Assembly: GCA_963704655.1 (NCBI GenBank)
Contig: OY969927.1
Coordinates: 292,222 to 356,221, forward strand
Length of the DNA stretch: 64,000 nucleotides
Origin: an uncultured Candidatus Babeliaceae bacterium
GTDB taxonomy: Bacteria > Babelota > Babeliae > Babelales > Babelaceae
Direction: 5' to 3'
The first letter of the stretch is position 1, and the number at the start of each line of letters is the position of its first letter. Below the pieces are notes generated by a model, which searched no databases, was not told the DNA's origin, and saw only the letters and a list, made by a program, of their open reading frames with translations. Below, in pieces: positions 832-62,281 of this stretch. The position numbers were made by a program, and so were the translations under genes.

Positions 832-3800
832 ATGAAGCAATATCTTTATGCAGCAGTCGCTGCAGCCATGTTATGTGTATCTTTACAAGCAGAAATAATC
901 TCATTGGAACAGGCTTATGTGGTTTTACAAGAGCTTGAAATGTTCGCACAAGGCGATCAACTTGATGCATCGAGTGATACTATTATGTTCGCGCTTGATG
1001 AACTTATAGGTTATCTTGAAAGTGATACACAGCTTTCAGCAGATGTTCGTTTGGATATTTCAAAAAAGATTAATCTGCTTGTTAAAAAAATTAATCTGCA
1101 GACACGTGCGCCACGTTTAGATGCACCAGAAATACGTGAAACTACAATACTTAATGAAAATTATTACCCAACGCGCGATCTCTATTTACGCAACTTACTC
1201 ATTACCGGCTCGCTTATTTTAAATGGCCAGCAGATCGGCGGTGGCGGCAGTGTGCCAAGTAATCTCTATGTATTAAAAGCTGGCGACACCATGACGGGCG
1301 ATTTAACCATGGCAGACCAGCATGGCATTGTATTAGAAGATGCTTCTGGCGCCAATGCAATTACCGTGCAAGCCCCAAATACTACCGAAACTTATAGCTT
1401 TACGTTGCCAGATAGTGCTGGCGCTGCAAACCAAGCGCTTACTACAGACGGCTTTGGGAATTTAACGTGGGCATCTGCGATTGCAACAACCTCTGGATTA
1501 CAAAGTATTAATAATCTCACAACACCGCACCAATATCTTCTTACCAGCACGGGGACATCAACTGCATTTCAGTTTATCGAAACAAGTTCTTCGCATATTT
1601 TAAATATTCCATACGTTCAGGATTCTAGCCAAGGGTATGGTCTTCTAGATTCTGCTGATTACAATAATTTTGTTAATGCCGCAAACATGGTTAATGCTGC
1701 AACCAGCGACGACGTTTGTGGCACACTTGTAAAGCGTGATGCTAATTGTAATTTTTCAGCTAATATAATTACGGCAACCGTAACGTATGCTAACTTTGCC
1801 TTAACGTCTTCAAGTGCATTAACGGCAGTAACATCAACAACGGCACAATATGCACAGGTAGCAAACAGCGCCAACTATCTTTGTGGCGTACCTGCATGTA
1901 ATTTAGTAAGTACCTATTCACAAGTTCTTTCCGGGACAAGTTTTGATATTCCATTAACACTCGTCTTGCGTGATAGCACCGGCAGCTTTGCAGCAACAAC
2001 TATTACACTCACCGGTGAATTGTTGTTACAAAATGCAAATGGTAATCTAACAGCGCTTCAAGCAGGTGCGCAAAGTTTTGCTCCAGTGTATACACTGATA
2101 TTGCCAACAACAATTGGTGGTGATAATCAGGTATTAACAACAGACGGTAATAACCCAGCAAATCTTTTTTGGCAGCCTGTTTCTGCAATTGTAACTTCTA
2201 CAATTGAACTTTATGGCGATGTTATGGGGTCATCAACTGCAAATATCGTTAATACTATATGCGGACAAAGTGCATGTTCAATTGTTACCACCGTTACCAC
2301 TGCAACAAGTGACAATATCTGTGGTACTTTGGTAAAACGTGACAGTAACTGTAACTTTTCTGCTAATTTAATTACTGCAACGGTGACAAATGCACTTCTT
2401 TCACAAACAGCATTATATGCAACTAATGCGCTACTTTCGGTAACTTCGCAATATGCGCAAAACGCAGGTTCGACTAACTTTGCTTACACGTCATCGCTTG
2501 CACAATATGCACAGGTAGCAAACAGTGCCAACTATCTTTGTGGTGTGCCTGCATGTAATTTAGTAAATACATATTCACAGGTACTTTCCGGGACAAGTTT
2601 TGATATTCCATTAACACTCGTCTTGCGTGATAGCACCGGCAGCTTTGCAGCAACAACTATTACACTCACCGGTGAATTGTTGTTACAAAATGCAAATGGT
2701 AATCTAACAGCGCTTGAAGCTGGTGCGCAAAGTTTTGCTCCAGTCTATACATTAATATTGCCAACAACAATTGGTGGTGATAATCAGGTATTAACAACAG
2801 ACGGTAATAACCCAGCAAATCTTTTTTGGCAGCCTGTTTCTGCAATTGTAACTTCTACAATTGAACTTTATGGCGATGTTATGGGGTCATCAACTGCAAA
2901 TCATGTTGCATTTGTATGTGGCGTGCCTGCATGTGCACTCGCACAAACGTATTCAACGGTTCTTTCAGCAACTGCATGTGATATTCCACTCACGCTTATA
3001 TTGCGTGACAGCACGGGCAGCTTTGCGGCAACAACTATTACACTCACGGGAAACAGTTTAATAAATTACAGCTCTGTCGGCGGATGCAACACTGGAGCTG
3101 GCTTTGTCTTTGCTCCGACAAAACAAAACACCATTATCGGGCTTGGTGCTGGTAATAATAACGTTCTCACTGGAACATCAAACATTGCAGTTGGATATCA
3201 GGCACTTGCAAAAAATACTTCTGGTTATAATAATGTGGCTCTTGGATTTAAGGCACTTGCAAATGGCAATACGATCAATAACTTTGACAATATCGCCATT
3301 GGCGCCAATACGCTTTCTGGCGCATCTATTTTAGGTGATAACGTTGCAGTTGGAACAAATGCGCTTTCTGCGTCGGGTTATACCGGCGGGCAGCAGATAG
3401 CAATTGGAACGGGTGCGTTACAAGCAAATACCACCGGTACTGGAAACATCGCAATTGGTTATGATGCATTACAAACAAATACAAGTGGGGTAAATAATAT
3501 AGCAATAGGCGCTTATGCACTGAGTAAGTTAAACTATAACCTACCGTTTCTTGGTATACCTAGCGGGGCAAATAATATTGCTATAGGCTCCAATGCATTA
3601 AGTAATATAGCTATAGCTGGTGAAAATGTCGCTATAGGCTCAAATACCTTACAGAATGGATCTTTTTCATACGGAAATGTTGCTATTGGTTATAACGCAT
3701 TTGTTTTTGGCAATTCAGCATTCAATGTGGCTGTTGGTAATTCGAGTATGGTCAGCAATAATACGGGCGCAAGCAACACAGCTGTTGGTTATTATTCACT

Positions 3801-6843: not shown

Positions 6844-7737
6844 ATGATGCAGATGTATAAAAAAATATTTTTTTTAATCGTAGTGTGTGTGTCGCTTTTT
6901 CATGCGCGGGATTCTCATGCTCTGGATATGATTTCTTTTATTATGCCCTGTTATAATGCAGACAAATTAGAACATGCGCTTGCAAGTATTTATCGGCAAA
7001 AAATAGATTGCCCGTTTGAAGTTATCTGTTGTGACGATGGCTCGACAGATGATACCTTTAAAAGGCTTTTAAGTTGTAAGCGAATGTACCCAAATCTTAA
7101 AGTGGTTCGCCATGGTACCAATAAAGGTGCCGGCGCTGCAGCAAATACCTGTGTACAATACAGCAAGGGTAAGTGGTTATACCGATTAGATTCTGATAAT
7201 ATGTTGCCCGAACCAGAGCTTGAAGTGATTAATAAGTTAGTTGCACTTTTAGAGAGCAGTGGGTGCGATGCGGCTATGGTTGAAACGATGGTGCTCTTTG
7301 AAGGTGACAGAAATATTAAAGCGCTGTGGCGCTATGAATCAGCAAGTGGTATGTGTGACCTTGAACATTGTATTACCGTGCCACATGATCCTGCAATGTC
7401 AGGTAATTTTTTAATGCGCAAAAGTGCCTATCTGCGCGTAGGCGGTTACCCAGAGGATCACGGTTCTGATACCTTTAGATTCGGCTTTAAATTATATGCA
7501 ACCGGTGGCAAAGTGGCGATTTTACGCGGTGCGTGGTACTGGCACTTTTATAACCCACATGGTTACTGGTGGCGCGAACAAAAATCAGGTAATAATGACG
7601 CTAAAGCGTTGCAGACCGTTATGGAACATAAAGATCTTTTTACACGCACTTCGCAACGGTATTTACATGATGCGCAAATGGGAAAAACAACACTATTTTT
7701 ATTGATACATAATAAATTACTTCAATTAAAAAACTAA
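6844..7737 (+). CDS. family-2 (GT-A) glycosyltransferase with N-terminal hydrophobic anchor
   Basis: ISFIMPCYNADKLEHALASIYRQ..VICCDDGSTDDT and LDSDNM (DxD) form a GT2 signature. The N-terminus is KKIFFLIVVCVSLF. The start could be 6844, 6847 or 6853. Confidence 0.8.
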   Translation: MMQMYKKIFFLIVVCVSLFHARDSHALDMISFIMPCYNADKLEHALASIYRQKIDCPFEVICCDDGSTDDTFKRLLSCKRMYPNLKVVRHGTNKGAGAAANTCVQYSKGKWLYRLDSDNMLPEPELEVINKLVALLESSGCDAAMVETMVLFEGDRNIKALWRYESASGMCDLEHCITVPHDPAMSGNFLMRKSAYLRVGGYPEDHGSDTFRFGFKLYATGGKVAILRGAWYWHFYNPHGYWWREQKSGNNDAKALQTVMEHKDLFTRTSQRYLHDAQMGKTTLFLLIHNKLLQLKN

Positions 7738-47230: not shown

Positions 47231-48418
47231 ATGAAGCTTCTCCAAAATATCGTTCTAGTCTGCTTATTTTCTACGGCACATGCTCAAATGCAGCAGGTTA
47301 ATTTTTTAGAACCGCTTCATGATAATGATGGTGCGTTGCAAGACATTACTCGTGCATGCAGTCAGATTTCGTCATCTTATACGTTGTTATTGCCCGCAAG
47401 CCAGGGTGAGCCCTATCAGGTTCTTGGGTTGATTGATGATATGGGAACACTTTCTTGGATCACCACGGTTACTGATGCAAGTCAGCTCAATTTATTATAC
47501 ACCGCAACTTCAGCAGACATTCCCTTAACGCTTGTTTTACGTGACAGTACTGGTTCATTTGCCGCAACTAATATTACACTTACGGGAAATTTAACGCTTG
47601 CAACTCTTACAGGTGTGTTGGTTGCACAAGATGGTTTGGTCTCTGCAACAATTGGCATAGATGGAACACGTCTAGCATCGTTTCCGTTAACAGACGTCCC
47701 CGCTGTTAATTTTTTTCAACCGGTTGAACCATCACGAGAATCATATTTCTTTGATGATTTTATTGCATTTAATGCATCGGCTGGTGGCGTTTTTTATGGT
47801 GATACACCATGGGTTATTTCTAACAATTCTTACCCATCACGCGTTACGTCGTTAAAAAACACCAGCAGCTCTGTTGGTGTTACTCGCCTTTCAACGGGCA
47901 ATATGCAAGATAGTTTGAACTATCTTATTAAGCAAATAAATGCAGACGGTACCAGTAATGGTGTTGGATTTGGCCTTGGTCCCTGCTTGAATGAATGGCG
48001 CGTATCAATTCCTGGTTCAACTCTTTCTTTGGCAAACAGTTTTACAGTATGTTGTGGCATGGGCGATAATTTGGGAACCGCACCTTACGTGCCACAAAAT
48101 GGTATTTATTTTTCATACACAAATACGGGTTCTGGGGCTGTATGGCAAATTAACACAGCTTTTGGTGGAACAATAACGCAAAATACAAGTCCAGCTGTAA
48201 CTCCACTGGCTGGGGTGTTCCAGAGGCTTGCATATGTTGTTGATGCAAGTAGCTCACAGGTAGATTTTTTTATTGATGATCTTTACGTTGGCACACTTTA
48301 TAACATTCCTAGTGGTAATGATTGTTCAGCATTTGCATCGATACGAACAGGAGGTTCTTCAGGCTCGATTGACTTAGATTATTGGTATTATCATTATACT
48401 TTTAATCTGCGGCGTTAA
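47231..48418 (+). CDS. minimal fibre protein (395 aa): signal peptide, one address motif, one LRDSTGSFAAT collar, shared C-terminal head domain
   Basis: The ATG at 47231 gives MKLLQNIVLVCLFSTAHA. Motifs are SYTLLLPASQGEPYQVLGLIDDMGTLSW and TSADIPLTLVLRDSTGSFAATNITLTG. The C-terminal 254 aa is homologous to the ends of the 48450 and 56816 products. Confidence 0.82.
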   Translation: MKLLQNIVLVCLFSTAHAQMQQVNFLEPLHDNDGALQDITRACSQISSSYTLLLPASQGEPYQVLGLIDDMGTLSWITTVTDASQLNLLYTATSADIPLTLVLRDSTGSFAATNITLTGNLTLATLTGVLVAQDGLVSATIGIDGTRLASFPLTDVPAVNFFQPVEPSRESYFFDDFIAFNASAGGVFYGDTPWVISNNSYPSRVTSLKNTSSSVGVTRLSTGNMQDSLNYLIKQINADGTSNGVGFGLGPCLNEWRVSIPGSTLSLANSFTVCCGMGDNLGTAPYVPQNGIYFSYTNTGSGAVWQINTAFGGTITQNTSPAVTPLAGVFQRLAYVVDASSSQVDFFIDDLYVGTLYNIPSGNDCSAFASIRTGGSSGSIDLDYWYYHYTFNLRR

Positions 48419-48449
48419 TATAATAAAACTAAAAAAAAAGGGTTTTGTA

Positions 48450-51179
48450 ATGAGTAATAGATTATTTATTTTTGCAGTATTTTTGATCAGTTTATTTGTT
48501 CCGATATATGCGGAAATAACAAGTGTAGATGAAGCGCTTAAGGTTGTGGGTTTTCTTGATGCGCTTGAAGAAAATTATAAAGATGCATTTAAAGAAAAAA
48601 ATATACGCTATGCATTGGAAGATTTATTAGCTTTTTATGAAAATTCAAATGAATTTACTCCAGAACAACGTGCAGGACTATTTAATAAATTATATCGCTA
48701 TTTCCAGCTGGTTGAAAAATTTGATGCTGAAAATGGCTCTGCAACAAAGTTTTTAAATTCAGATCAAAGTTTAGTAACCTACTGGACACAAATGGTAGCT
48801 GCTACTCATACTATACTTGATACGAATAATAGTTCTACGAGTAATGCATTAAATTTAATTGCGCCAATTTCTGGTGGATTTAACTACACCTATACGTTGC
48901 AAATGCCGGTTAACCAGGGATCTTTTGGACAAGTTTTGTCAACTGATGGTAACAACCCTGCGCAACTTTCTTGGCTTACTACTATAACTGCAGATGTAAG
49001 TCTTATTTACTCTGCAACAAGTTGTGATAATGTAAATACCATAGTATTACGTGATAATAATGGCAGTTTTGTAGCAACAAATATCGCGCTGATGGGCAAT
49101 ACAAATAACAGCTTAATAAATTATAGTACAACTTCATGTGGTCCGGGTACGTCGATGTTGAGTATTCCTGGAACACAAAATATATTCTTAGGCACATCCG
49201 TTGGCAATTCAGCTGTATCGGGCCCAGGTAACGTAGCAGTTGGTAATACAACACTCAATGCTATAACTTCAGGCTCTGGTAACACTGCTATTGGTGTTAA
49301 TGCATTAGCTGCAGTAGTGACAGGCTCTAATAATACTGCAGTTGGTTATGGCGCTAACGTAACTGGCGCAAATGCTCTGAATCAGACAGCAGTTGGTGCC
49401 GGCGCAGTTGCACCATTTAATAACAGCGTGGTATTAGGTAACGCTGCTGTAACCAATGTGGTCCCTATGGCAAGCGGTGTTACAAGTCTTGGTGGTGCAA
49501 GTAATATTTGGTCAACCCTCAATACCTATTCAACTAATTACTATGATAGATCAGGTGATGTAGTTACTATTGCAGCAACGCCAGGTGGAACAGGAACTTA
49601 TACAATGTATTGGCCAACTTCTGTAGGTCAAGCAGGGTATGTGCTTGAAGCAACCACCAGTAGTAGTCCGCAACAGCTTAATTGGATTCCTATTACCGCA
49701 TTGCTGAGCGGTACCTATTGTGATTTCCCAAGCACCTACGTGCAGCGCGATCCAAATGGTAAATTTGCAGCAACAACGATTACGTTAACGGGTGTATCGT
49801 TACTTAACTACAGCACTCTTGGTGGTTGTGACCTCGGTAACCCATTCTTGAGCGTTCCAGGAACAAACAACTTGTTCTTAGGCACTTCTGCTGGTAAACA
49901 AACAGTATCAGGCAGTGCCAACGTTGCTGTGGGTAACCAAGCATTAACAAGCATTAGTACTGGTACGTCTAATACTGCAATTGGTTATAATGCTCTTGCT
50001 GCAGCAGCTGCCGGCTATAATAATGCTGCATTGGGTTATTATGCATTAGCTATTGCTACCGGAAATAATAACGTTGCAGTAGGTTATAATGCCGGTTCAG
50101 CAAGTACCGGATCTAATAATATCTATGTTGGTACAGGAGTAACCGGAAATTCTGGTGATGCCAGTGTTATCAGTATCGGTATTCAAAATGCTGGAACAAG
50201 TGGCACCTATATGGGTGGTATTTATAATACTACGCCTACAGGATTAAACTCTCTTGTAGGTATTACCAGCAGTGGTCAACTTGGTGTTGCAACGTCAGCA
50301 ACTATTACCACACTTACGGTATCAGGAAGTCTTACTGTTGATAATCTTAATGGTGCAGTTATTGCAACTAACGGGTTATTAACAGCGACTATTGGTATTG
50401 ACGGCACACGCCTTGCATCATTTATATTAACCGATACACCTGCAGTAAGCTTCTTCCAACCGGTTGAGCCATCACGTGAATCATACTTCTTTGATGACTT
50501 TATGGCATTTAATTCTACTGCTGGCGACTTGTTCTATGGTGATACACAATGGGTAATTGGTAATAATACTGCCGGACGTGTTACGGCAATTGCACCGCTT
50601 GCATCTAATGGCGCAATTGGTGTGACTCGTTTAACATCTGGCGCTGCTGTAAATAACAGTAATTATATTACCAAACAGCTTACGGGCACAACGTCATTAA
50701 GCTTGTCGCTAGGATATGGCCCATGCTTGAATGAATGGCGTGTTTCTGTTCCAGCAACTTCAAGCGGAACAAATAGTTTCTATACTCGTGTTGGCTTTGG
50801 AGATAGTCCTGCTGCTACAGCAGTAAACCCAACAGGTGCGCCAAGTAATGGTATTTACTTCCAATGCCTTGATAGCATCAACAGTGGTTCATGGACGGTT
50901 AATACCGCAAGTAATGGAAGCAGAACATCGGCAAATACAGCAGTTGCTCCTACTCCAGGCGTATTCCAACGATTGAGTTTTCAAGTTAATGGAAATGCAT
51001 CAAGTGTTACGTTCTACATAAATGATGTTTCGGTAGGAACTATTACGACAACGATACCAACAATAGCCAATGGTAACTATTGTTCACCATATGCGTCTGT
51101 GGTGCGAAATGCTGGTACTGGAGGATCTCTTGATCTTGATTATTGGTATTTCCATTATACCTTTAATTCACGACGTTAA
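48450..51179 (+). CDS. fibre protein (909 aa) with two short beta-roll modules and the shared C-terminal head domain
   Basis: Signal peptide MSNRLFIFAVFLISLFVPIYA plus an N-terminal helical domain. Motifs are YTYTLQMPVNQGSFGQVLSTDGNNPAQLSW, TSCDNVNTIVLRDNNGSFVAT and YCDFPSTYVQRDPNGKFAATTITLTG. The protein ends LDLDYWYFHYTFNSRR. Confidence 0.88.
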   Translation: MSNRLFIFAVFLISLFVPIYAEITSVDEALKVVGFLDALEENYKDAFKEKNIRYALEDLLAFYENSNEFTPEQRAGLFNKLYRYFQLVEKFDAENGSATKFLNSDQSLVTYWTQMVAATHTILDTNNSSTSNALNLIAPISGGFNYTYTLQMPVNQGSFGQVLSTDGNNPAQLSWLTTITADVSLIYSATSCDNVNTIVLRDNNGSFVATNIALMGNTNNSLINYSTTSCGPGTSMLSIPGTQNIFLGTSVGNSAVSGPGNVAVGNTTLNAITSGSGNTAIGVNALAAVVTGSNNTAVGYGANVTGANALNQTAVGAGAVAPFNNSVVLGNAAVTNVVPMASGVTSLGGASNIWSTLNTYSTNYYDRSGDVVTIAATPGGTGTYTMYWPTSVGQAGYVLEATTSSSPQQLNWIPITALLSGTYCDFPSTYVQRDPNGKFAATTITLTGVSLLNYSTLGGCDLGNPFLSVPGTNNLFLGTSAGKQTVSGSANVAVGNQALTSISTGTSNTAIGYNALAAAAAGYNNAALGYYALAIATGNNNVAVGYNAGSASTGSNNIYVGTGVTGNSGDASVISIGIQNAGTSGTYMGGIYNTTPTGLNSLVGITSSGQLGVATSATITTLTVSGSLTVDNLNGAVIATNGLLTATIGIDGTRLASFILTDTPAVSFFQPVEPSRESYFFDDFMAFNSTAGDLFYGDTQWVIGNNTAGRVTAIAPLASNGAIGVTRLTSGAAVNNSNYITKQLTGTTSLSLSLGYGPCLNEWRVSVPATSSGTNSFYTRVGFGDSPAATAVNPTGAPSNGIYFQCLDSINSGSWTVNTASNGSRTSANTAVAPTPGVFQRLSFQVNGNASSVTFYINDVSVGTITTTIPTIANGNYCSPYASVVRNAGTGGSLDLDYWYFHYTFNSRR

Positions 51180-51206
51180 TAAGTAGATAAAAAAAAGGGT
51201 AAAAAG

Positions 51207-54200
51207 ATGAAAATAAACATACTAGTTTTCACATTAACGTTAGTAACATTTTTGCCATTTTATGCTGCCATAAACAGTTTAAAAGAAGCACGAATTGTTT
51301 CGCGGTATCTTGGTGTTATTAAACAACATGACACTATCCTTTTTTCAGACCCTTTGGTGATTCAGACGGTAAACGATCTTATTGATTTTTGTGAAAATAA
51401 TAATCAATTAAGTGAACAAGAAAAATTGGAGTTTGTAACGAAATTAGAAGAGTTTATTTTGTTGGTCCCCGCTGATAGCAGTGGGGATCAACAGATCGGA
51501 GATCAATTGGTGGGGAAAGCAAACCCGCTGTCTGTTAATGGGCAGACATTGGTTGCTTATTGGAGTCAAATTTTTAGCTCGACAGAATTTTTATTTGATA
51601 GCACAGGGAACAACACCGTAGCATTATCTGCTCCATTGGTGTTAAATGATAGTTATACTTTACAATTTCCTGTATCAGAAGGTTCTGCTTATCAAGTGCT
51701 GGGAACATTGGGTGGCAATCCCGCACAACTTGCTTGGCTTACTACTGTTACTAATACGAGTCAATTAAATTTACTGAATACCGCAACAAATTGTGATGTT
51801 GCAAATACATTAGTATTGCGTGATACAACTGGCAGCTTTGCAGCAACAACAATCACGTTAACCGGCAATAGTTTAATTAATTTCAGTACTGTTGGTGGCT
51901 GCGATATCGGACAAGGCTTTGTCTTTGCGCCAACACATCAAAATACCATTATCGGCCTAAATGCAGGAAATAATAACACCCTTACCGGCACAAGTAATGT
52001 TGCATTAGGTTATAATGCGCTAGCAGCGAACATTATTGGACATGACAATATCGCATTAGGTACCAATGCGCTTGCAAATAACACCACCAACCTATCTACT
52101 GCTGTAGGCTCAGGAACTTTACAAAGTAATGTTTCTGGTAGCCAAAATACTGCTGTTGGATATTATGCATTGAATAAAGTTGTTGCCAATGGTAACAATA
52201 CCGCAGTTGGATATTACGCCCTTTTGAATAATACTAATAACCAGCTTACCGCTGTTGGTGCTGGTGCATTACAAACGAATGTCAACGGCTCAGCAAATGT
52301 TGCAGTTGGCTATAACGCATTGAATCAAAATAACGGAGCAAACAATACGGGTCTTGGTTTTCAGGCAGCGCAGGGAACAACTGCTGCAGGTAATATTGTT
52401 GCAGTAGGTGCAAATGCTTTTGCAGCAGGCGTTGCTACTGGTGCACAAACGGTTGCAGTTGGCTCAGCTGCGATGCAGAATGCAAAACCAGCTTTGGGTG
52501 CAGATATTGCCATAGGTTATCAAGCATTGCAGAATGATAATCAAGGGCTCAATGTTGCAGTTGGTACATCGAGCATGACCACTAATAATACCGGCGCTTA
52601 TAACACTGCTGTTGGAATATCAACATTGCAAAACAATGGTAGTGGGATTCAAAATACTGCTATCGGATATTATGCACTTCAAGCAAATACAACGGGAACA
52701 TCAAACATTGCATTAGGCTACCAAGCACTTGCAAATGCAAACACCATAAATAACTTTGATAATATTGCAATTGGAGCATTTACGCTTACTGGAACTGCGG
52801 TATTGGGTGATAATATTGCGGTGGGGGTCAATGCGCTTTCTGCGCCTGGCTATAACCAAGGTCAGCAGATAGCAATTGGAACAAATGCATTACAACTTAA
52901 TACAACTGGAACGGCAAATATTGCAATCGGTTACGAAGTGCTTGATGCAAACACGGCTGGTTCATCAAACGTTGGGCTTGGGTATCAAGCTTTAGGTACT
53001 AATGTTAGTGGTAATGATAATACAGCTGTTGGAACATTAGCTCTTTTCAATAACACAACAAATCAGATCACCGCGGTTGGTTCTGGTGCACTACAAAATA
53101 ATACTACTGGTATTCAAAATACTGCAATTGGTTATAAAGCGCTTAATGCTAATACCACAGGGACATCAAATGTTGCTATCGGATATAAAGCGTTACAGAC
53201 AAATACTATTGGTGATGATAATATTGCTATAGGTTATAACGCATTAAACACCTTCAATTCTGCTATTGGAAAAAATATAGCTATTGGTTCGCTAGCATTG
53301 CAAAGTTTAAATACTACCAATGCGCAGAGTGTTGCCATTGGTTATCAGTCAGGGCTAATTTCTACAGGTGCTAGCAATACTATTGTTGGTTCAAATGCGG
53401 CGACTGGTTTAACAACAGGCGGAAGTAGTGTTGTTATTGGTGCAACTGCCGGCGCAGGCACAACAGTAAGTAATAACGTTGTTGTTGGCGCAGGCGCAGG
53501 AAACCAGACATTAACGGGTGCAACTAACGTTGTTGTAGGGCAGGGTTCCGGAACTGGATTAACTTCTGGCGCAAGTAATACCATTTTAGGACAAGCTGCC
53601 GGAACCGGTTTAACGTCAGGTGGAAGCAGTGTTGTTATAGGCGCAACTGCAGGTGCAGGTACAACAGTAAGTAATAACGTTGTTGTTGGCGCAGGCGCAG
53701 GAAACCAGACATTAACGGGTGCAACTAACGTTGTTGTAGGGCAGGGTTCCGGAACTGGATTAACTTCTGGCGCAAGTAATACCATTTTAGGACAAGCTGC
53801 CGGAACCGGTTTAACGTCAGGTGGAAGCAGTGTTGTTATAGGCGCAACTGCAGGTGCAGGTACAACAGTAAGTAATAACGTGGTTGTTGGTGCTGGTGCG
53901 GGAAACCAGACATTAACCGGCGCTAGCAATGTTATTGTTGGTCAGGGAACAGCTACGGGATTAACTTCAGGTGGAAGCAATATTATTATTGGTCAAGGAA
54001 ACACGGGCGGTACATTAACTACAGGAGCTAATAATATTATTATTAGTACCGGCAATAATGCTACGTACCCAATCGCTAATGGTTCGAATGGTATCATTAT
54101 AGGCTTTGGAACAACTTCTACAACAGCCTGTTGGATCGATGGGATTCTGCCTTTTGCCGCTGGCGCAAATACTGTACGTATAACTGCTGCTGGCAGATTG

Positions 54201-56816
54201 GGTACAGCTGCTTCGTCTGCACGTTATAAAACTAATATAAAACCGATGACAAGTGAGTCTTCAAATATATATCAGTTAAGTCCTGTTTCATTTACGTTTA
54301 TTCCAAGTATTGATCCAACACAAACAACCTACTATGGTTTAATAGCCGAAAATACTGTTGGTCTTTACCCAAGTTTAGTTGTTACAGATACAGCAGGTCT
54401 TCCTTGGGCGATTAACTATGATTTATTGTCACCGATAGTTTTAAATGAAACACTTAAGCTTAACGCCTTTGTGCCGATAACATTAAATTATACAAGTACG
54501 CAAAATACGGTTATTGGTAAAAATGCGTTGCAGGCAATTACTACTGGTTCGGGTAACACTGTTTTTGGTTATCAAGCGGGGAATTCGATCACAACAGGAT
54601 ACGGTAACACACTTCTTGGCATGGGTGCAGATGTAGCTTCTGGTAACCTGGTAAATGCGACAGCAATTGGTGCTGGTGCAAAGGCCACTAATAATAATAC
54701 TATTGTCTTAGGAAATTCAAATGTTGTTGCTGTAGTACCCGGTTCAACTAATGCTACGCTTGGTGCGCCTGGGCAGATGTGGTCATCTATTATGACAACA
54801 CAATTGACTTCTGCTGGCAGTTTAACATCGCCTACAATTACGTTAACAAGTAATCCATTAATGTATTATTATGATGGCATAACCACGTGGACTATGTTGT
54901 CAGCGCCTGGAACACAAAATACTTTCTTAGGGCAAAGTGCGGGTAATTTATCGGTGACAGGAGCACGTAATGCTGCCTTTGGTTATCAGGCTGCAAAATC
55001 AAACATAACATCAAGTGATAATGTGGCTGTTGGGGTGAATGCATTGGCAACATATAATGGTGCAGGTGGTCAACATGTTGCAATAGGATCAGGTTCTATG
55101 CAAAATGCGACTCCTACCGGACAGTCTGATATTGCAATCGGATATAATACGTTGCAAAAAGATAATGGTCAAGGATCTAATATTGCCATTGGTAACTCAG
55201 CAATGCAGAATGCTACGCCTATAAATGGTCAAGATATTGCAATTGGGTTACTTACATTACCAAGTGATACCATAGGATTTAATATCGCAATCGGTAACAG
55301 TAGTATGACTAATAATACAACTGGTGTTAATAACGTTGCTCTGGGAATTTCTTCATTACAAACTAATACTTCTGGATCGTATAACGTCGCTATCGGTAAT
55401 AGCGCATTATTTGGAAACGCTGCCAATGCTGCAAAAAATGTAAGTAATAACGTTGCTGTTGGGTATCAAAGTTTGTATAACAATCGCGCAAATAATTTAA
55501 CGGCAATTGGTTATTATGCGCTTGGCTCAAATACAACCGGTATTCAAAATACGGCACTTGGTTATTACGCACTTGGCCTGAATACAACCGGCACATCAAA
55601 TATCGCTATCGGTTATCAAGCTTTAGCAAATGCAAACACTATCAATAATTTTGATAATATCGCCATTGGTATAAATACGCTTTCTGGAGCAGGTGTCTTA
55701 GGTGATAATATCGCCATTGGTGCAAATGCGCTTTCTGCATCTGGGTATAGTCAAGGCCAGCAGATTGCTGTTGGCACAAACGCATTGCAAGTTAATACAA
55801 CAGGGACAGCAAATATAGCAATTGGTTATGGGGTGCTTGATGCAAACACGGTTGGGTCGTCGAACGTGGGGCTTGGGTACCAAGCATTAACTACTAATGT
55901 TAGCGGTAATGACAATACTGCAGTTGGAACGAATGCTTTACAGTTTACGACAACATGGCGTTTAACTGCCGTTGGTTCTGGCGCATTACAATATAATACG
56001 ACTGGTTTTCAAAATACCGCCGTTGGCTATCAGGCGCTTAATGCAAATACAACCGGCACATCGAATGTTGCTATTGGTTACCAAGCTCTTTTAACAAATA
56101 CAGGAAGCAGTAGCAATATCGCCATTGGTGCCAATACATTAACAAGATTTAGCAGTGCTTCTAATTTTGGTGGCAATAATACAGCAGTGGGTATCAATGC
56201 GTTAGTTTCACTCATTACGGGAACTGGCAATACAGTTTTGGGCTACAACGCTGGATCAAACTTAACAACTGGTAGTGGAAATATTTATGTCGGTGCATTT
56301 GTTGCCGCAGCAACAACTAACGAGAGCAACACAATACGTATTGGAAGTGTTGGCGGTGCAGGAACAGCAGCTTGCTATATTCAAGGAATTAATGGTAAAA
56401 CAGTTCTTCCTGTAGCTGGTGCGGGCACTGTTAGTGTAAGTACGACTGGACAGCTTGGTACTACCGTTTCATCACGACGTTTTAAGAAAAATATTCAAGA
56501 TATGGGTCTAATCACTGAAGATTTGTATAAATTACGTCCTGTAACATTTAATTATAAAGTTGATGAGGCTGAAGAGCATTTAGAATATGGTCTAATCGCT
56601 GAGGAAGTTGATGAGGTTTATCCAGGGATTATTATTAGGGATGATTATGGAGCGCCATTTTCGGTTCAATACCAATTTCTTCCTATGATGATGCTTAATG
56701 AATTGCAAAAAGATCGTGCACGTATTGTGGTATTAGAAGATAAAATTGTAAGATTGGAACAACAGATTAGCAAGCTTTTGAATAATAGTGAACGACTTTC
56801 AGTAAAGGATGTGTGA
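51207..56816 (+). CDS. double fibre protein (1869 aa) with an internal and a C-terminal Peptidase_S74-like domain
   Basis: Signal peptide MKINILVFTLTLVTFLPFYA. Module 1 ends ..RITAAGRLGTAASSARYKTNIKPM... A second beta-roll module follows. The C-terminus is VSSRRFKKNIQDM..GLIAEEVDEVYPG..MMLNELQKD. Confidence 0.9.
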   Translation: MKINILVFTLTLVTFLPFYAAINSLKEARIVSRYLGVIKQHDTILFSDPLVIQTVNDLIDFCENNNQLSEQEKLEFVTKLEEFILLVPADSSGDQQIGDQLVGKANPLSVNGQTLVAYWSQIFSSTEFLFDSTGNNTVALSAPLVLNDSYTLQFPVSEGSAYQVLGTLGGNPAQLAWLTTVTNTSQLNLLNTATNCDVANTLVLRDTTGSFAATTITLTGNSLINFSTVGGCDIGQGFVFAPTHQNTIIGLNAGNNNTLTGTSNVALGYNALAANIIGHDNIALGTNALANNTTNLSTAVGSGTLQSNVSGSQNTAVGYYALNKVVANGNNTAVGYYALLNNTNNQLTAVGAGALQTNVNGSANVAVGYNALNQNNGANNTGLGFQAAQGTTAAGNIVAVGANAFAAGVATGAQTVAVGSAAMQNAKPALGADIAIGYQALQNDNQGLNVAVGTSSMTTNNTGAYNTAVGISTLQNNGSGIQNTAIGYYALQANTTGTSNIALGYQALANANTINNFDNIAIGAFTLTGTAVLGDNIAVGVNALSAPGYNQGQQIAIGTNALQLNTTGTANIAIGYEVLDANTAGSSNVGLGYQALGTNVSGNDNTAVGTLALFNNTTNQITAVGSGALQNNTTGIQNTAIGYKALNANTTGTSNVAIGYKALQTNTIGDDNIAIGYNALNTFNSAIGKNIAIGSLALQSLNTTNAQSVAIGYQSGLISTGASNTIVGSNAATGLTTGGSSVVIGATAGAGTTVSNNVVVGAGAGNQTLTGATNVVVGQGSGTGLTSGASNTILGQAAGTGLTSGGSSVVIGATAGAGTTVSNNVVVGAGAGNQTLTGATNVVVGQGSGTGLTSGASNTILGQAAGTGLTSGGSSVVIGATAGAGTTVSNNVVVGAGAGNQTLTGASNVIVGQGTATGLTSGGSNIIIGQGNTGGTLTTGANNIIISTGNNATYPIANGSNGIIIGFGTTSTTACWIDGILPFAAGANTVRITAAGRLGTAASSARYKTNIKPMTSESSNIYQLSPVSFTFIPSIDPTQTTYYGLIAENTVGLYPSLVVTDTAGLPWAINYDLLSPIVLNETLKLNAFVPITLNYTSTQNTVIGKNALQAITTGSGNTVFGYQAGNSITTGYGNTLLGMGADVASGNLVNATAIGAGAKATNNNTIVLGNSNVVAVVPGSTNATLGAPGQMWSSIMTTQLTSAGSLTSPTITLTSNPLMYYYDGITTWTMLSAPGTQNTFLGQSAGNLSVTGARNAAFGYQAAKSNITSSDNVAVGVNALATYNGAGGQHVAIGSGSMQNATPTGQSDIAIGYNTLQKDNGQGSNIAIGNSAMQNATPINGQDIAIGLLTLPSDTIGFNIAIGNSSMTNNTTGVNNVALGISSLQTNTSGSYNVAIGNSALFGNAANAAKNVSNNVAVGYQSLYNNRANNLTAIGYYALGSNTTGIQNTALGYYALGLNTTGTSNIAIGYQALANANTINNFDNIAIGINTLSGAGVLGDNIAIGANALSASGYSQGQQIAVGTNALQVNTTGTANIAIGYGVLDANTVGSSNVGLGYQALTTNVSGNDNTAVGTNALQFTTTWRLTAVGSGALQYNTTGFQNTAVGYQALNANTTGTSNVAIGYQALLTNTGSSSNIAIGANTLTRFSSASNFGGNNTAVGINALVSLITGTGNTVLGYNAGSNLTTGSGNIYVGAFVAAATTNESNTIRIGSVGGAGTAACYIQGINGKTVLPVAGAGTVSVSTTGQLGTTVSSRRFKKNIQDMGLITEDLYKLRPVTFNYKVDEAEEHLEYGLIAEEVDEVYPGIIIRDDYGAPFSVQYQFLPMMMLNELQKDRARIVVLEDKIVRLEQQISKLLNNSERLSVKDV
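53367..53969 (+). repeat. three tandem in-frame copies of a 201-bp (67-aa) unit
   Basis: Copies start at 53367, 53568 and 53769. The unit is GASNTI.G...TGLT.GGSSVVIGATAGAGTTVSNNVVVGAGAGNQTLTGA.NV.VGQG..TGLTS. Copies 2 and 3 are almost identical at nucleotide level. Confidence 0.92.
54213..54470 (+). other. internal Peptidase_S74-like domain
   Basis: S-S-A-R-Y-K-T-N-I places Ser aa 1003 at 0 and Lys aa 1008 at +5. It continues ..IYQLSPVSFTF..YYGLIAENTVGLYPSLVV..INYDLLSPIVLNETLKLN. Confidence 0.7.
56469..56813 (+). other. C-terminal Peptidase_S74-like chaperone domain
   Basis: SSRRFKKNIQDMGLITEDLYKLRPVTFNY..EYGLIAEEVDEVYPGIIIRD..QYQFLPMMMLNELQKDRA plus a coiled coil. Confidence 0.8.
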
Positions 56817-59800
56817 TGAAAAGAAAGATGTTATTTTTTTATACTATATTTTTGACGTTAAGTGCCTTAACAACGCTTAACGCAGTTCAAGATAAAGTTG
56901 TTTTGGTTGATAACAATACATTATCTCAGCTAGATATGCATAGATGGTATAATGAAAATATACATCAGCTAGAATCTGTTCCTGCACAAGCGTATGTTCA
57001 TCATAAGATTTTTAAACTGACACATGATAAAGATTCTGAATACATTTTTATATACGGAAATAAAAAATTCGTGTCACGACAAGAAGCACAATTAGATGCG
57101 GGTGATTGTTGTTTAGGGCAACTGCCTGGCGCAACGCTGATCGCAGATTTTCTTGTGCATAATCAAGATCTTTTTGTCCGTAATGCGCAAAAAGTTTCAC
57201 ACCGTGCCGGTCAATTTATTTGGGATCGACTTACTCCTGGATTACCTTTATTGTTAGATTCAAATTTAGATGTTGTTACACAAAACGTTGATATAGCAAG
57301 TCAAACAAGCGGTGCTGTGGCAATAGCATTAGGTGGCACCAATTCAACTTCGCCATTACAGAACAATTGTCTTATGGAATCAGTTGGTGGACAAATAGTT
57401 GAAGCTCCGGCGTTACAAAATGGACAGATTTTTATTGGTGCAACAGGCATGTCGCCAAGTCCTGCAACTATTTCTGGAACAGCTTCTCAAATTAATATAA
57501 CAAATGGCCCTGGATCTATAACACTTTCAACACCACAAAATATCGATTTACTGTCAACGCCGACATTTGTGGGTATTCAGTTTCAACCTAGTGGTTCATC
57601 TAATTATGTTACTCTTCAGGCACCTGCAACAGTAAGTTCAACGTATTCAGTAAGCCTACCAGGCTCTGCGCCAACTGCAGGTCAAGTATTACAGGCAACA
57701 TCTACATCAACAACTCAGTGGGGGAATGTGAGTGACGCGCTTACTTTATATGTTGCTGTCAATGGAAATGATAGCACGGGAAATGGCTCATTAACAGCAC
57801 CTTTTGCAAGCTTAAAGCGGGCACTAGCCGTCGCTAATGCTATTGCATCAGAATATACACCAGTTAAAATCTCAGTGGGGCCTGGTATATTTGTGGAAGA
57901 CACTTCTTCTGGCCCATTAATAATTAATCCTGTAAGTGGTAGTGGTTATATCAACATTGTGGGAACATCAAGTCAAACAACTCTCTTTACTTCTTATACC
58001 CCAACACAAACGTTTATCTATATGCCAGCAAATGGCCGGCTTTCTGATTTGGCAATTTTTGGTATATATGAAGCGCCCGCAGTGTGCGCAGATGGCACTG
58101 GTAATAATTCTGCCTTTATTAACGCTGTTGCAGTTGGTTGCCAGCAGGGTTTTCTTTTTCAAGGTGGTATAACAACTAACTACTATTTACAAGGAGTTGC
58201 TACCGAAAGTTGCGGTGTTGGTGTGCTAGTTGATGATGCTCGCGTGTTGATGTATAACTCAAGTTTTGATGGGGCACTTGAAACAACAATTATTCCTGCA
58301 AATACGGGGGTTATTGTAACAGGTCCGGCAGGGCGTATGGTTGCAGAGTCATGCGCATTTTTATATTGCGGCCTTTGTGGATTGGTAGAAAATCAAGGGA
58401 ACGCTACATTTATAGGCGGCTCGTTTATTAGTTCAACAAGTGGTGTTCAGGCAGCAAGTCAGTCAACGTGTATTGTTAATGGTTCAACATTTTATAGTAA
58501 TACCGCAACGAATATGATCGCTCGAGATTTGGGGACAACTTTGCAGTCAACTGCATGTAATGTTGATGGTAATAGTTTAAATAATCTTCCGCAAGGAACG
58601 GGTCTTTTGGTTACCACCAGTGCTCAGGCTAATATTGCAGTTGCGTCGTTAACTAATTTAATAAATGGTATTATCATTGGTCAAGATGGTGATGATAGCA
58701 CAACGCAGGTTCTTTCAGTTGGAGTAACTATCGATAATTGTGCAGGATCACAAATTATTCAAAATGGGCTTGCGCAATTAACGTATGTTGATGGTGCTCT
58801 TAATAGGAACTTTATAACTATTTCAAATCCTACAAATGTTACCTTTAATACCACGGATGCTTCAAGCGGGCAGGCAACGATTATTGGTCAGCATAGTGAT
58901 GTTGATCAAGATTTGATTCTTGTTGATACTGGGGTTGCGCAGATGCCAGGGTTAGTTTATCAATCAAATTATATGGATTGTAAGGGTATAATTTATCAAA
59001 ATACTAATCCTGCTTTTTCAACCATGCTTGGGGTGCAGGGACAAAACTCTGGCGCAACACTTTCTGCAGTTACTGCTTCAAATGCACAACCTGCAAAAGT
59101 CATGTTATTTTCAAACTCCGGTGCTTTTGGCGGAATGAGTAATATGCGCGGTTGGTTGTTGAATAAAAACGCAACAAACGCTCAATTGGCAGGTGAATTT
59201 TATAATAATGATCTTGATGGTAAACCTGCTATAGATCAATATACAAGTTTTCAATTTGACGGTTTTAATAATATTTTGCAATTCCCGGCAGTAACCACAA
59301 CAAATTTACCAACCAATACCGTGGCACAATTACAATGGGCGGGAGATACGAATCTTTACCGTGCACAAGCAGGTGTGTTACAGACAGATAATAACTTTGC
59401 CATTCAAGGTCTTGCCACCGCAAATAGTGCATTATATGTAGATGGTAATAAGCAGGTTGCTGCAAGTGTTACCTCTTCAAGTGATTTAGCACAACTTGCA
59501 GGAATAACCGGTGGTCCTATTCAGCCGCAACTTAATAATAAAGTTTCAAAGGCTGGCGATGTTATGACCGGCGTGTTAACTATTCCAGATGGCACCGTTG
59601 CAAGACCGGCACTTAGTTTTAATGGTTTTCCTAATACTGGATTAGCGATTATAGGTAACGTTTTTACCTTAATGACTTCAGGCAGTTCACGCTTAACAGT
59701 AGATGCTAACGGTGTTGTGGGTATTAATAGCTCGAATGTTTCAACGGTGTTGAACGTAGGCGGTGATGTATCTGTAGTGGGTGATCTTACGGTGACTAAC

Positions 59801-62281
59801 ACCTTAACTACCAATTGGTTAACTATTCAAAATAGTCCAGTTTTCTCAACAGATGGCGCCAATAAAGCTTATGTCGATGGGGTTGCTCAGGGATTACATG
59901 TTGCAGCGCCATGCACTGCACTTGGAGATTCAAATATCAGTTTGCTCTCTGGCGCCATAACTATTGACGGTGTATCACTTGTTGTTGGCAATCGTGTATT
60001 GCTTATTGGGCAAACAAGCTCAGTTGAAAATGGTATTTGGGTTGTACAATCTGGTTCATGGACACGACCAGTAGATTTTGCAACTGGAAATAGTGCGCAA
60101 GCAATTTATGCATTTATACAATCTGGGTCAACATATGGTGACACCGCATATTTTTGTACTACATTAGACCCGAATGCGGTAATTGATACTGACGCACTTA
60201 CCTTTGTGCAGTTCGGTAATGTTCAGGATGTTACAGGTCAAAACTTAGGAAGTGGAGCGTCAGTATTTGCTCAAAAATATGGACAAACGTTACAATTTAA
60301 ATCACTTGATGCAGGGCAAAATATCTTTATATCTTCTTCTGATACCGATATTACGATAGATCTTCCATCTGCATTAAATATCTCTGGTAAAATAACTGCC
60401 GGCACTGATATTAAGGGCGCAAGTATTAGTGATGGTATTGCGCTATTAACCAGTGGTAATTTGAATCTAAATAATCTTATTTCAACGGCTACGGTTACAA
60501 GTTCTGATGGATCGGCTGCGTATCCAAGTTTTAATTTTGCATCATCGCCACAGACAGGAATTTCTGCACAGACGCCTGACACATTAGTATTATCAACAGC
60601 GGGAGTTAACAACTTGCAAATTAATTCTTCAGGAATTATTCAAATTCCCGCGTTTACATCACCAGGAATTGTGCATAACGATGCTTCAGGAAATCTTTCT
60701 TCGTCATTAATAACCAGTGCCGATATATCAGCAACTGCCGGTATAGCAGATACGCAACTTGGTATTATTCATACTGCGGGTAAAGTTGCTAATAGCGCTA
60801 CAACAGCAACAAATAATAATAATCAAAATACTATTGTCATGCGCGACATGAATGGTAACTTTTCTGCAGGCGCGGTGAGCGCCTCTTTGCAAGCACCGAG
60901 TGGTTCAGTAACTTCGCCATCGGTGGCTTTTGCAAATTCACTTAATGCAGGCTTATCATCGCCCGTTGCAGGCCAGCTGAGCATAAGTGCAGGTGGTGCA
61001 GAATTATTACAATTGCAAGCGGGTGGAAATATCTATGTTCCTGGTTTTGTTTCAAATAATGGGGTGGTAAAATCAACATCGGGTATATTAAGCTCCGCGC
61101 CGTTATATGATGCGGATATCGCAGTTGGCGCTTCTATACAAGATACAAAATTAGCAACCATACAAAGTGCTAATAAAGTTGCAAATAGCGCAACTTCTGC
61201 AACATCGGCTAATAGTGCTAATACTATTGTCGCACGTGATGGATCTGGTAACTTTGTTGCAAATACAGCAACATTTGTTGCAACAAATAATCATCTTGTA
61301 TTGGGCAGTGGTAATACGGTTACCATTAATGCTGCCACTCCTGCAGTTTCACGTACGTATACAGTTCCAGACACCGGTACATCAACTTCTACGTTTATGA
61401 TGGTTGATGGCGCACAAACTATGAATGGTCCACTTACCTGTAATCAACTTTCTGTGACGCCGGGTAGCTTTACGGTGGGTTCACAAACCGGGGTTGTTAC
61501 GGCAAATAGCGGTCTTTATGGTGCATCGGTTGGAAATGCTGGTCAACGTCTTGCAACATTTGGCAGCACACCAACTGTTGGGTGGTACAAGTCAATTGAG
61601 CCATCACGCGAGTCATTATTCTTTGATGATTTTACTGGCCCGCTGTTTGATACGCAGTGGTATGCTGGCGGATCGATTGGTAGTGTAACAGCACCAAGTG
61701 CTTCTGCAACGGGCATGGAGATTGGCGTTATTCAACTTGGCACGGCTGGCGCACCAGATGGTTCTACGGTAATTAATAAACAACTTAATGGCACTGTGCT
61801 TGGCAATGGAACATGTTATGTTGAATGGCGCGTTGCAGTGCCAACATTATCAACAAGTAATCAGCAGTTTACCTTCAGATGTGGTCTTGGTGATAGCAGT
61901 GTTGGCAACGGTGTTCCGCAGGCAAATCCAACAACGGGTATTTGGTTTGAACATAGCGGTACTAATATTTCACCTACATGGATCATTAATTGTGCATCTG
62001 CAGGAAACACTACTTCCATTCCTACTACGCAGGTTATTGCTCAGGGTGTCTATTATCGATTAGGACTTTTAGTAGATGCTGCTGCTGATTCGGTATCATA
62101 CTATATTAATGACGTGCTTGTTGGGGTTAGTTCTGGAACGAATCCAATTACTACAAATATTCCGACTACGGTACAACCTGTTGGTTTATTTGCGCATCTT
62201 ATTAAATCATCAGGAACAACGGCGCGTACGGCAAACTTGGATTATGCAATGTACCAGTATGTTTATACGAGCCAACGATAG
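56816..62281 (+). CDS. fibre/tailspike-like protein (1821 aa): signal peptide, right-handed beta-helix-like region, tail-fibre repeats, shared C-terminal head domain
   Basis: The ATG at 56816 overlaps the upstream TGA by 1 nt. The N-terminus is MKRKMLFFYTIFLTLSALTTLNA. LYVAVNGNDSTGNGSLTAPFASLKRALAVA is a DUF1565/pectate-lyase-type start. Fibre repeats are GKVANSATTATNNNNQNTIVMRDMNGNFSAG and NKVANSATSATSANSANTIVARDGSGNFVAN. The protein ends LDYAMYQYVYTSQR. Confidence 0.88.
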   Translation: MKRKMLFFYTIFLTLSALTTLNAVQDKVVLVDNNTLSQLDMHRWYNENIHQLESVPAQAYVHHKIFKLTHDKDSEYIFIYGNKKFVSRQEAQLDAGDCCLGQLPGATLIADFLVHNQDLFVRNAQKVSHRAGQFIWDRLTPGLPLLLDSNLDVVTQNVDIASQTSGAVAIALGGTNSTSPLQNNCLMESVGGQIVEAPALQNGQIFIGATGMSPSPATISGTASQINITNGPGSITLSTPQNIDLLSTPTFVGIQFQPSGSSNYVTLQAPATVSSTYSVSLPGSAPTAGQVLQATSTSTTQWGNVSDALTLYVAVNGNDSTGNGSLTAPFASLKRALAVANAIASEYTPVKISVGPGIFVEDTSSGPLIINPVSGSGYINIVGTSSQTTLFTSYTPTQTFIYMPANGRLSDLAIFGIYEAPAVCADGTGNNSAFINAVAVGCQQGFLFQGGITTNYYLQGVATESCGVGVLVDDARVLMYNSSFDGALETTIIPANTGVIVTGPAGRMVAESCAFLYCGLCGLVENQGNATFIGGSFISSTSGVQAASQSTCIVNGSTFYSNTATNMIARDLGTTLQSTACNVDGNSLNNLPQGTGLLVTTSAQANIAVASLTNLINGIIIGQDGDDSTTQVLSVGVTIDNCAGSQIIQNGLAQLTYVDGALNRNFITISNPTNVTFNTTDASSGQATIIGQHSDVDQDLILVDTGVAQMPGLVYQSNYMDCKGIIYQNTNPAFSTMLGVQGQNSGATLSAVTASNAQPAKVMLFSNSGAFGGMSNMRGWLLNKNATNAQLAGEFYNNDLDGKPAIDQYTSFQFDGFNNILQFPAVTTTNLPTNTVAQLQWAGDTNLYRAQAGVLQTDNNFAIQGLATANSALYVDGNKQVAASVTSSSDLAQLAGITGGPIQPQLNNKVSKAGDVMTGVLTIPDGTVARPALSFNGFPNTGLAIIGNVFTLMTSGSSRLTVDANGVVGINSSNVSTVLNVGGDVSVVGDLTVTNTLTTNWLTIQNSPVFSTDGANKAYVDGVAQGLHVAAPCTALGDSNISLLSGAITIDGVSLVVGNRVLLIGQTSSVENGIWVVQSGSWTRPVDFATGNSAQAIYAFIQSGSTYGDTAYFCTTLDPNAVIDTDALTFVQFGNVQDVTGQNLGSGASVFAQKYGQTLQFKSLDAGQNIFISSSDTDITIDLPSALNISGKITAGTDIKGASISDGIALLTSGNLNLNNLISTATVTSSDGSAAYPSFNFASSPQTGISAQTPDTLVLSTAGVNNLQINSSGIIQIPAFTSPGIVHNDASGNLSSSLITSADISATAGIADTQLGIIHTAGKVANSATTATNNNNQNTIVMRDMNGNFSAGAVSASLQAPSGSVTSPSVAFANSLNAGLSSPVAGQLSISAGGAELLQLQAGGNIYVPGFVSNNGVVKSTSGILSSAPLYDADIAVGASIQDTKLATIQSANKVANSATSATSANSANTIVARDGSGNFVANTATFVATNNHLVLGSGNTVTINAATPAVSRTYTVPDTGTSTSTFMMVDGAQTMNGPLTCNQLSVTPGSFTVGSQTGVVTANSGLYGASVGNAGQRLATFGSTPTVGWYKSIEPSRESLFFDDFTGPLFDTQWYAGGSIGSVTAPSASATGMEIGVIQLGTAGAPDGSTVINKQLNGTVLGNGTCYVEWRVAVPTLSTSNQQFTFRCGLGDSSVGNGVPQANPTTGIWFEHSGTNISPTWIINCASAGNTTSIPTTQVIAQGVYYRLGLLVDAAADSVSYYINDVLVGVSSGTNPITTNIPTTVQPVGLFAHLIKSSGTTARTANLDYAMYQYVYTSQR
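57740..58860 (+). other. predicted right-handed parallel beta-helix (pectin-lyase-fold) region
   Basis: The entry motif YVAVNGNDSTGNGS..PF.SL..AL is followed by ~350 aa of irregular G/N/T/V-rich ~22-25-aa turns, such as VGCQQGFLFQGG, CGVGVLVDDARV and NTGVIVTGPAG. Boundaries are approximate. Confidence 0.5.

Follow-up and report, generated by a model that had tools for sequence, protein, structure and literature searches.

Six putatively exported fibre proteins built from phage tail-fibre parts on a Babeliaceae chromosome

What is the role of proteins built from the parts of phage tail fibres when their genes lie among the housekeeping genes of a host-dependent bacterium? The question is raised by a 64,000-nt stretch of DNA from an uncultured Candidatus Babeliaceae bacterium (assembly GCA_963704655.1, contig OY969927.1, positions 292,222 to 356,221 of the forward strand; hereafter the window). 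The six long open reading frames (ORFs) that an initial annotation had delimited there were recovered with the same ends; they are lettered A to F by coordinate (Table 1) and together span 35,223 nt, or 55.0% of the window. Genes C to F are arranged head to tail, with gaps of 31 and 27 nt followed by a 1-nt overlap of the E stop with the F start. The reading that we consider probable, with some reserve, is that the six products are modular paralogous fibres of a protist-parasitic member of the Babeliaceae, which are exported, project from the cell surface, attach to the host and evolve fast.

The phage origin of the parts, proposed at the outset, is supported by Peptidase_S74 (S74) domains, by PHROG tail-spike and virion-structural families, by the fold matches of the tip domain and by Protein Data Bank (PDB) matches to phage fibres. 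Pfam places PF13884 at the C-termini of A, B and E, the number of S74-terminated fibres originally given (E-values 3e-11, 4e-10 and 3e-20; 43.8, 40.2 and 72.6 bits against a gathering cut-off of 22), and the same scan found no PF13884 in C, D or F. The catalytic serine and the lysine five residues later (Ser-x4-Lys dyad) are intact in all S74 copies of A, B and E. The S74 regions match the PHROG family 'long tail fiber distal subunit', and the C-terminus of A matches PDB 6f45, a phage long-tail-fibre distal subunit. The dyad and these matches are features in common with the S74 fibres of phages, such as the K1F endosialidase, T5 pb1/LTF and S16 gp37; unlike in those, signal peptides replace the virion-attachment N-termini, no tail genes adjoin the fibre genes, and the genes have a stable place on the chromosome, with synteny between genomes. 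The shaft of A matches the PHROG tail spike phrog_4636 at 7e-104, and the shafts of A and E match tail-spike and virion-structural families at 1e-84 to 1e-121, with that of D matching more weakly.

An additional S74 domain lies inside E (34.4 bits against the same cut-off). It shares 37% identity with the C-terminal copy of E and has no trailing helical segment; about 700 residues of fibre repeats and then the C-terminal S74 come after it in the same reading frame (about 810 residues to the end of the protein). If active, this domain would split E into two fibres. Such an internal-S74 self-splitting arrangement is otherwise known from the eukaryotic MyRF.

The non-S74 members C, D and F share a C-terminal domain of approximately 250-290 aa, with an identity of 51% between C and D and 34% between C and F. 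PDB sequence searches with C, E and the tip profile returned nothing useful. Among 5.8 billion proteins, the tip profile reached only about ten further proteins: two close relatives (besides C itself) whose N-termini are hydrophobic and signal-peptide-like, and seven distant ones that start with MAS, MSQ, MAN or MAG and have no signal-peptide-like segment. One of these seven, P0124, is reached at 3e-33 and carries the Pfam domains SO2946-like_C (1.5e-15) and BppL_N; the best segment of its shaft is 37-74% identical to proteins on 11 viral contigs of IMG/VR. In IMG/VR no close relatives of the tip were found, and only the P0124 shaft is common to viral contigs.

The tip was modeled with AlphaFold2 from a 15-sequence alignment (pLDDT 79, pTM 0.83), which replaced a 6-sequence model (pLDDT 52). 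In Foldseek, the top matches of this model were uncultured Caudovirales proteins (E 2e-15, template-modeling (TM) score 0.69-0.77), and the names among them include 'SO2946-like C-terminal domain', 'Concanavalin A-like lectin/glucanase' and 'Major tropism determinant N-terminal domain-containing' proteins. Fold matches in the PDB comprise L-type lectins (Emp46p), the lectin module of the staphylococcal adhesin SraP, botulinum toxin binding domains, GH16 and PL7 enzymes, and SO2946 (2a5z) at TMq 0.56; SO2946-like proteins of BFVD gave TM 0.62-0.70 and giant-virus proteins TM ~0.56. Because of the fold matches of the model and the profile link through P0124, we conclude that the predicted tip of C, D and F is a concanavalin A (ConA)-like jelly-roll of the phage receptor-binding type, which is most likely a glycan binder. 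In its predicted fold and through that link it may be akin to the SO2946-like_C family (PF22237, PDB 2a5z) of the ConA-like lectin/glucanase superfamily. It differs in that the tips of C, D and F gave no direct Pfam match, to PF22237 or any other family, and in that the close tip family is tiny.

The six proteins were expected to share two motifs and, in five cases, long repeat runs, which holds in part. As written, Y-x-L-x-LP...W occurs only in B and C; in relaxed form it is found three times in A, four times in B and once each in C, D and E, and the one copy in F, at aa 275, is degenerate. The motif LVLRDSTGSFAAT is present as written in A, B, C and E, with only loose versions in D and F. 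Long 17-aa N-x-A-x-G-x-x-A-L runs were found in three proteins (A, B and E) and not in five, relaxed copies of the repeat numbering 25 in A, 80 in B, 27 in E, 5 in D and none in C or F. All these motif counts are far above chance (10 against a shuffle mean of 0.005, 20 against 0, and 137 against 0.4). The shaft of A contains three junction motifs; in B, 12 junction motifs of the LRD type separate blocks of repeats, as if several fibre units had been concatenated.

Mosaicism is also evident at the DNA level. Positions 3274-4271 in A are 92% identical over 1002 bp to 25668-24668 in B, on opposite strands, B and E share 869 bp at 79%, and many further segments are shared between the genes at 70-88%. 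Within B there is a near-identical tandem duplication of 1141 bp (98.7% identity; nt 34289-35429 and 35456-36596, minus strand), which, together with the segment common to A and B, indicates recent duplication or gene conversion. The core of F (nt 57575-61033, aa 254-1406) is 40% identical to P0135, a protein of 2469 aa with an A-type N-domain and an S74 end, which equals in length and end motifs the ORF of locus L009 from a Dependentiae bog metagenome-assembled genome (MAG); one and the same core thus occurs in combination with different ends. Residues 1038-1110 of F (nt 59927-60145) match a phage capsid-decoration protein (PDB 9nx3, 4e-7). A further segment, found in F (aa ~305-700, window 57728-58915) and in its two Dependentiae relatives P0135 and P0138, starts like a right-handed beta-helix (pectin-lyase-like) tailspike, VAVNGNDSTGNGSLTAPFASLKRAL. 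Pfam searches with three segments of F (N-terminal, beta-helix-like, middle) gave no matches, and the tailspike-like beta-helix is a motif-level impression only.

The locus is cellular, and its owner is host-dependent, as the initial annotation had held. HU and HxlA fall into clusters of ≥90% identity together with MAG proteins of 'Candidatus Babeliaceae bacterium', the best homologues of the fibres are Babeliaceae/Dependentiae proteins that NCBI PGAP names 'tail fiber domain-containing protein', and the codon usage of the fibre genes equals that of their housekeeping neighbours. Since the neighbours themselves are housekeeping genes as well, we conclude that the region is part of the chromosome of a member of the Babeliaceae, phylum Dependentiae (TM6/Babelota), whose members live as obligate protist parasites. 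The housekeeping character of the neighbourhood (serS, secD, recJ, gatCA) was confirmed by NCBIfam and Pfam scans, in which every other scanned ORF of at least 100 aa, in the window and the inspected flanks, proved to be housekeeping or unknown. Neither the window nor the inspected flanks hold a capsid, portal, terminase, tail, baseplate, integrase or lysis gene, again in agreement with what had been seen initially, and the locus sits on a contig of ~1.3 Mb; a prophage was rejected on these grounds. Recent horizontal transfer was rejected because the codon usage matches that of host genes. The label 'Legionellales bacterium', attached to one 1.8-kb contig in the SerS cluster, is a probable binning error, since an HU protein of adjacent accession (MFI4919974.1) is named Candidatus Babeliaceae and the synteny is with a Babeliaceae MAG.

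The chromosomal setting can be followed into that MAG, GCA_019744895.1. On its contig JAIETV010000021, the order fibre(S74)-GT2-158aa-TatD-HU-SerS-HemW-PNPOx-342aa-SecD-PgsA-ligase is that of window 832-19136. Ten of the 11 flanking proteins compared at the A slot are 65-100% identical, and the flanking DNA is 70-99% identical; the positional orthologue of A itself gives only local, non-collinear matches of ~46% identity and no DNA match. On JAIETV010000013, the genes gatA-gatC-MATE-rsmG (76-90% identical) are divergent from a gene for an 1835-aa S74 fibre at the B slot (L005), which has the leader IPLYxLD...YY...AC and the junction motif as in B; a second fibre gene, with an A-type N-domain, follows it. 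Synteny at the A and B loci thus shows that two of the three fibre slots are conserved and that their contents turn over quickly, which we read as the pattern expected of host-recognition genes. The GT2 gene lies directly downstream of A (window 6844-7737) and of its orthologue (L025 2631-3593), with 74% identity; it may be linked to fibre glycosylation, or its position may be coincidental. Between GT2 and tatD, an ORF of ~157 aa (window 7826-8299; L025 3673-4149) has no detectable similarity between the two genomes and is either very fast-evolving or replaced.

At the other end of the proteins, the signal-peptide-like N-termini noted initially on all six were recovered with a simple n/h/c heuristic (K/R in the start, a 10-aa hydrophobic core, an AxA-like site). 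The hydrophobic cores have a mean Kyte-Doolittle value of 2.2-3.0 in all six, and an AxA-like cleavage site is present in all but B. The ~80-aa N-domain described as common to A, D and E is a looser relationship: D and E are related to each other at 27% identity, the link of A to D and E exists at profile level only (hhalign probability 86%, E 5e-6, 70 columns), and the full form is found in A alone, as D and E keep only the first half of its domain. Directly after the A-type N-domain comes the phage-fibre motif LKAGDTMTG. With a profile of this domain (A3), only 16 relatives were found among 1.84 billion representative proteins, and in 15 of them the match begins within the first ~120 residues; a broader five-sequence profile (A5) had given no matches. 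The domain occurs at eight loci in four MAGs, two of which are labelled Babeliaceae/Dependentiae and two unclassified, and none was found in IMG/VR. From its distribution, it is a reasonable candidate for a lineage-restricted docking domain of A, D and E.

B and C begin with a different leader, IPLYxLD...PSYY...TRAC in B, which recurs in P0004, P0009, P0122, P0123 and the L005 fibre, and the N-terminal region of F is of a third type. The N-domain, previously the obvious candidate for anchoring the fibres, is therefore not a general anchor, being confined to A, D and E. Both B and C have a conserved cysteine, in (T)RAC context, 5-10 residues upstream of the first junction motif; P0004, P0009, P0122, P0123 and the L005 fibre also have a cysteine a few residues before the first junction, in varying context. 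The leader cysteine might form an inter-chain or anchoring disulfide.

Table 1. Coordinates of the fibre genes and of their domains and motifs in the window
Feature	Position	Strand	Description
Fibre A	832..6720	+	1962 aa; signal peptide upstream of nt 892 (832-891); S74 end
Fibre B	22684..37023	-	4779 aa; weak signal peptide, B-type leader, S74 end
Fibre C	47231..48418	+	395 aa, minimal form: signal peptide, short B-type leader with Cys, 1 junction module, tip
Fibre D	48450..51179	+	909 aa: signal peptide, half N-domain, junction, short repeat run, tip
Fibre E	51207..56816	+	1869 aa: signal peptide, half N-domain, repeats, internal S74, repeats, C-terminal S74
Fibre F	56816..62281	+	1821 aa: signal peptide, unique N-terminal region, core, phage-like segment, tip
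S74 of A	6358-6516	+	SSRRYK
S74 of B	22891-23055	-	STRRVK
Internal S74 of E	54213-54380 (aa 1003-1058)	+	SSARYK; PF13884 34 bits, E 2.8e-8
C-terminal S74 of E	56469-56624	+	SSRRFK
Type-A N-domain of A	892..1215	+	~75-aa stretch (initially described as helical), [TS][KR]APR motif, RDxYLRNLxxTGSL
Half N-domain of D	48513-48821	+	
Half N-domain of E	51267-51599	+	
Leader Cys of B	~36740-36770 (aa ~85-95)		
Leader Cys of C	~47360-47380 (aa ~43-50)		
Lectin-like tip of C	47681-48415	+	
Lectin-like tip of D	50430-51176	+	
Lectin-like tip of F	61541-62278	+	

The neighbours of the fibre genes comprise GT2, tatD, HU, serS, hemW, a PNPOx-like gene, tRNA-Leu, secD, tRNA-Met, pgsA, an ATP-dependent DNA ligase, hxlA, a TPR protein, rsmG, a MATE transporter, gatC, gatA, a PAP2 protein, mreC, recJ, an oxidoreductase and a D-Ala-D-Ala dipeptidase; Peptidase_C39_2 and an unknown gene lie just downstream of the window. 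The ligase (17367-19136; NCBIfam TIGR00574 dnl1) and a 3-hexulose-6-phosphate synthase-like gene (19212-19835) are seemingly unusual housekeeping content for the small genome of a parasite. A partial ORF at window 1-600 on the minus strand encodes a signal-peptide protein, repetitive, rich in beta-strands and of beta-propeller-type appearance, which would be an exported neighbour of fibre A. When genes C to F were scanned for promoters and terminators, the counts were the same as in shuffled sequence.

Other assemblies support much of the locus. Logan short-read assemblies of other runs are 100% identical to the window at 44556-53489, 46746-51335 and 55355-64000, and fibres C and F are each 100% identical to a Logan contig. 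A contig of 1,307,222 bp from ENA is 99.5% identical to the window over 21 kb (89 mismatches, 17 gaps), and the ORF of fibre E has equal length in it. Owing to these Logan and ENA matches, C, D, F and part of E are independently confirmed. The ENA differences are probably unpolished long-read errors, through which exact-sequence look-ups of long fibre proteins can fail; exact look-ups of A, B and E returned no further contigs, and the exact B protein has no record in other assemblies. MATE and gatA are fragmented in the ENA contig (L001 630-3829) and intact in the window (37874-41060). Because of the 1141-bp duplication and the absence of the exact B protein from other assemblies, the length of B and the copy number of its duplicated segment are uncertain, with a risk of assembly error.

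The analogy with the chimeric fibres of predatory bacteria, which had been drawn initially, is apt. Bdellovibrio bacteriovorus has 21 paralogous mosaic adhesive trimers (MATs), 13 with S74 and 8 without, in each of which a signal peptide and a conserved N-domain are combined with exchangeable tips; the proteins have been demonstrated both at the surface of the predator and within the invasion vesicle (PMC10769870, Caulton et al. 2024). Like the MATs, the fibres of the window form a chromosomal family of multiple paralogues, mostly of about 1000 aa or more, with signal peptides, phage-tail-fibre-like shafts, a split into S74 and non-S74 members, and swappable tips that include lectin-type folds; mosaic evolution and an organism that depends on attaching to another cell are further likenesses. 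By every criterion tested, the fibres resemble MATs except for the single invariant N-domain. All MATs have one predicted beta-rich N-domain of ~130 aa, whereas here there are at least three types, none of them in all six proteins, and no beta-rich character is established for the domain of A, D and E, the MAT domain being compared by description. The likely target also differs, being a eukaryotic host and not bacterial prey, and so does the tip, which is predicted to be ConA-like/SO2946-like here, whereas the solved MAT tips have novel beta-sandwich, TNF-like and C-type lectin folds; no sequence-level PDB matches to those solved tips were found. Two further peculiarities set the family apart from MATs, namely one member with two S74 domains (E) and one of 4779 aa (B). 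The trimeric autotransporters YadA and Hia have comparable long repeats of the N-x-A-x-G-x-x-A-L type, and some homologues of the fibres are labelled 'trimeric autotransporter adhesin'. This class was rejected: as initially stated, no C-terminal autotransporter beta-barrel is present, Pfam finding neither a YadA-type membrane anchor nor Hep_Hag matches, and the C-termini are S74 or lectin domains.

We hypothesize that each protein carries a cleavable Sec signal peptide and would be exported from the cytoplasm, and that trimerization would start at the C-terminal end. In A, B and E, the C-terminal S74 would drive trimer folding and then cut itself at the conserved serine, exposing a phage-type fibre end; in C, D and F, the ConA-like lectin domain, self-folding and of phage receptor-binding-protein type, would form the distal tip. 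The N-terminal end, represented by the N-domain (A, D, E), the cysteine leader (B, C) or the particular region of F, would be cell-proximal. The fibres could thereby extend outwards from the cell and recognize glycans or proteins on the surface of the eukaryotic host, leading to attachment or uptake, and recombination and duplication between the genes would reshuffle the modules into a fast-evolving host-recognition repertoire held in fixed slots. A possible route to the surface is the type II secretion system with duplicated GspD; Dependentiae are described as having such a system, in which GspD is present in two copies, and an outer membrane that is degenerate, much of the synthesis of lipopolysaccharide being absent (PMC4776705). 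Several observations weigh against this proposal: the exact length of B rests on one assembly and B contains near-identical repeats, its signal peptide is the weakest of the six, no single N-terminal domain is common to all six in the way of the invariant MAT domain, and no anchor or outer-membrane route was identified in the six proteins.

The absence of an anchor motif and the heterogeneity of the N-termini would also suit fibres that are released and not anchored, serving in soluble form as lectins or agglutinins, enveloping the infectious cell as a matrix or coat, or acting as phagocytosis bait similar to giant-virus fibrils. The internal S74 of E, if active, would free the distal half of that protein, the GT2 gene accompanies fibre A in both genomes, and giant-virus proteins are among the fold matches of the tip. 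Release is nevertheless unlikely in our view, as nearly all relatives found carry the conserved, lineage-restricted N-modules at, or close to, their N-terminus, which argues for a specific docking role, and the Bdellovibrio precedent is cell-attached. It is more doubtful still that the fibres are directed at other bacteria or phages, either as adhesins to prey or food for co-ingestion or as decoys: phage receptor-binding tips evolved for bacterial envelopes and MATs bind bacterial prey, but lectin-type tips bind eukaryotic glycans equally well, and the handful of Dependentiae in culture parasitize protists, either amoebae or a flagellate (PMC6561590; PMC4776705). We consider it very improbable that the fibres are receptor-binding parts of a domesticated particle (tailocin, contractile injection system or gene transfer agent-like) encoded elsewhere in the genome, since, although all recognizable parts are those of phage receptor-binding proteins and the inspection covered the 64 kb and short flanking stretches out of a ~1.3-Mb genome, genes for a sheath, tube, baseplate, capsid or terminase are absent from the window and the inspected flanks, the N-terminal domains are absent from IMG/VR, the fibre genes are spread over three housekeeping loci, and the Sec-type signal peptides on all six are incompatible with cytoplasmic assembly onto a particle.

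Exported, host-attaching fibres thus remain the preferred reading. A more far-reaching form of it is possible, and we put it forward tentatively: the hypervariable phage-derived fibres, kept in fixed chromosomal slots, may set the range of protist hosts that can be attached to and entered, the lineage-specific N-modules, without kinship to known anchors, may dock them, and the internal S74 may cut the poly-fibre E in two.

The novelty implied at the outset was too high, as systems of this kind have been described for Bdellovibrio and PGAP already gives the Babeliaceae homologues their tail-fibre name. The literature found discusses MATs only for Bdellovibrio and related predators, and none was found that links Dependentiae with S74 or tail-fibre proteins; for the entry of Dependentiae into their protist hosts, it proposes only type IV pili (PMC4776705). 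The fibre genes are concrete candidates for host-range determinants, and they would extend the MAT principle, the use of phage receptor-binding parts by cells, to a phylum far removed from that of Bdellovibrio, with eukaryotes as its targets. The N-terminal modules, rare as they are, hint at a novel docking of trimeric fibres to a degenerate outer membrane, and the contrast between conserved slots and hypervariable content may offer a handle for predicting host specificity from metagenomes. If the proposal is true, phage tail-fibre machinery would have been repurposed to recognize eukaryotic cells.

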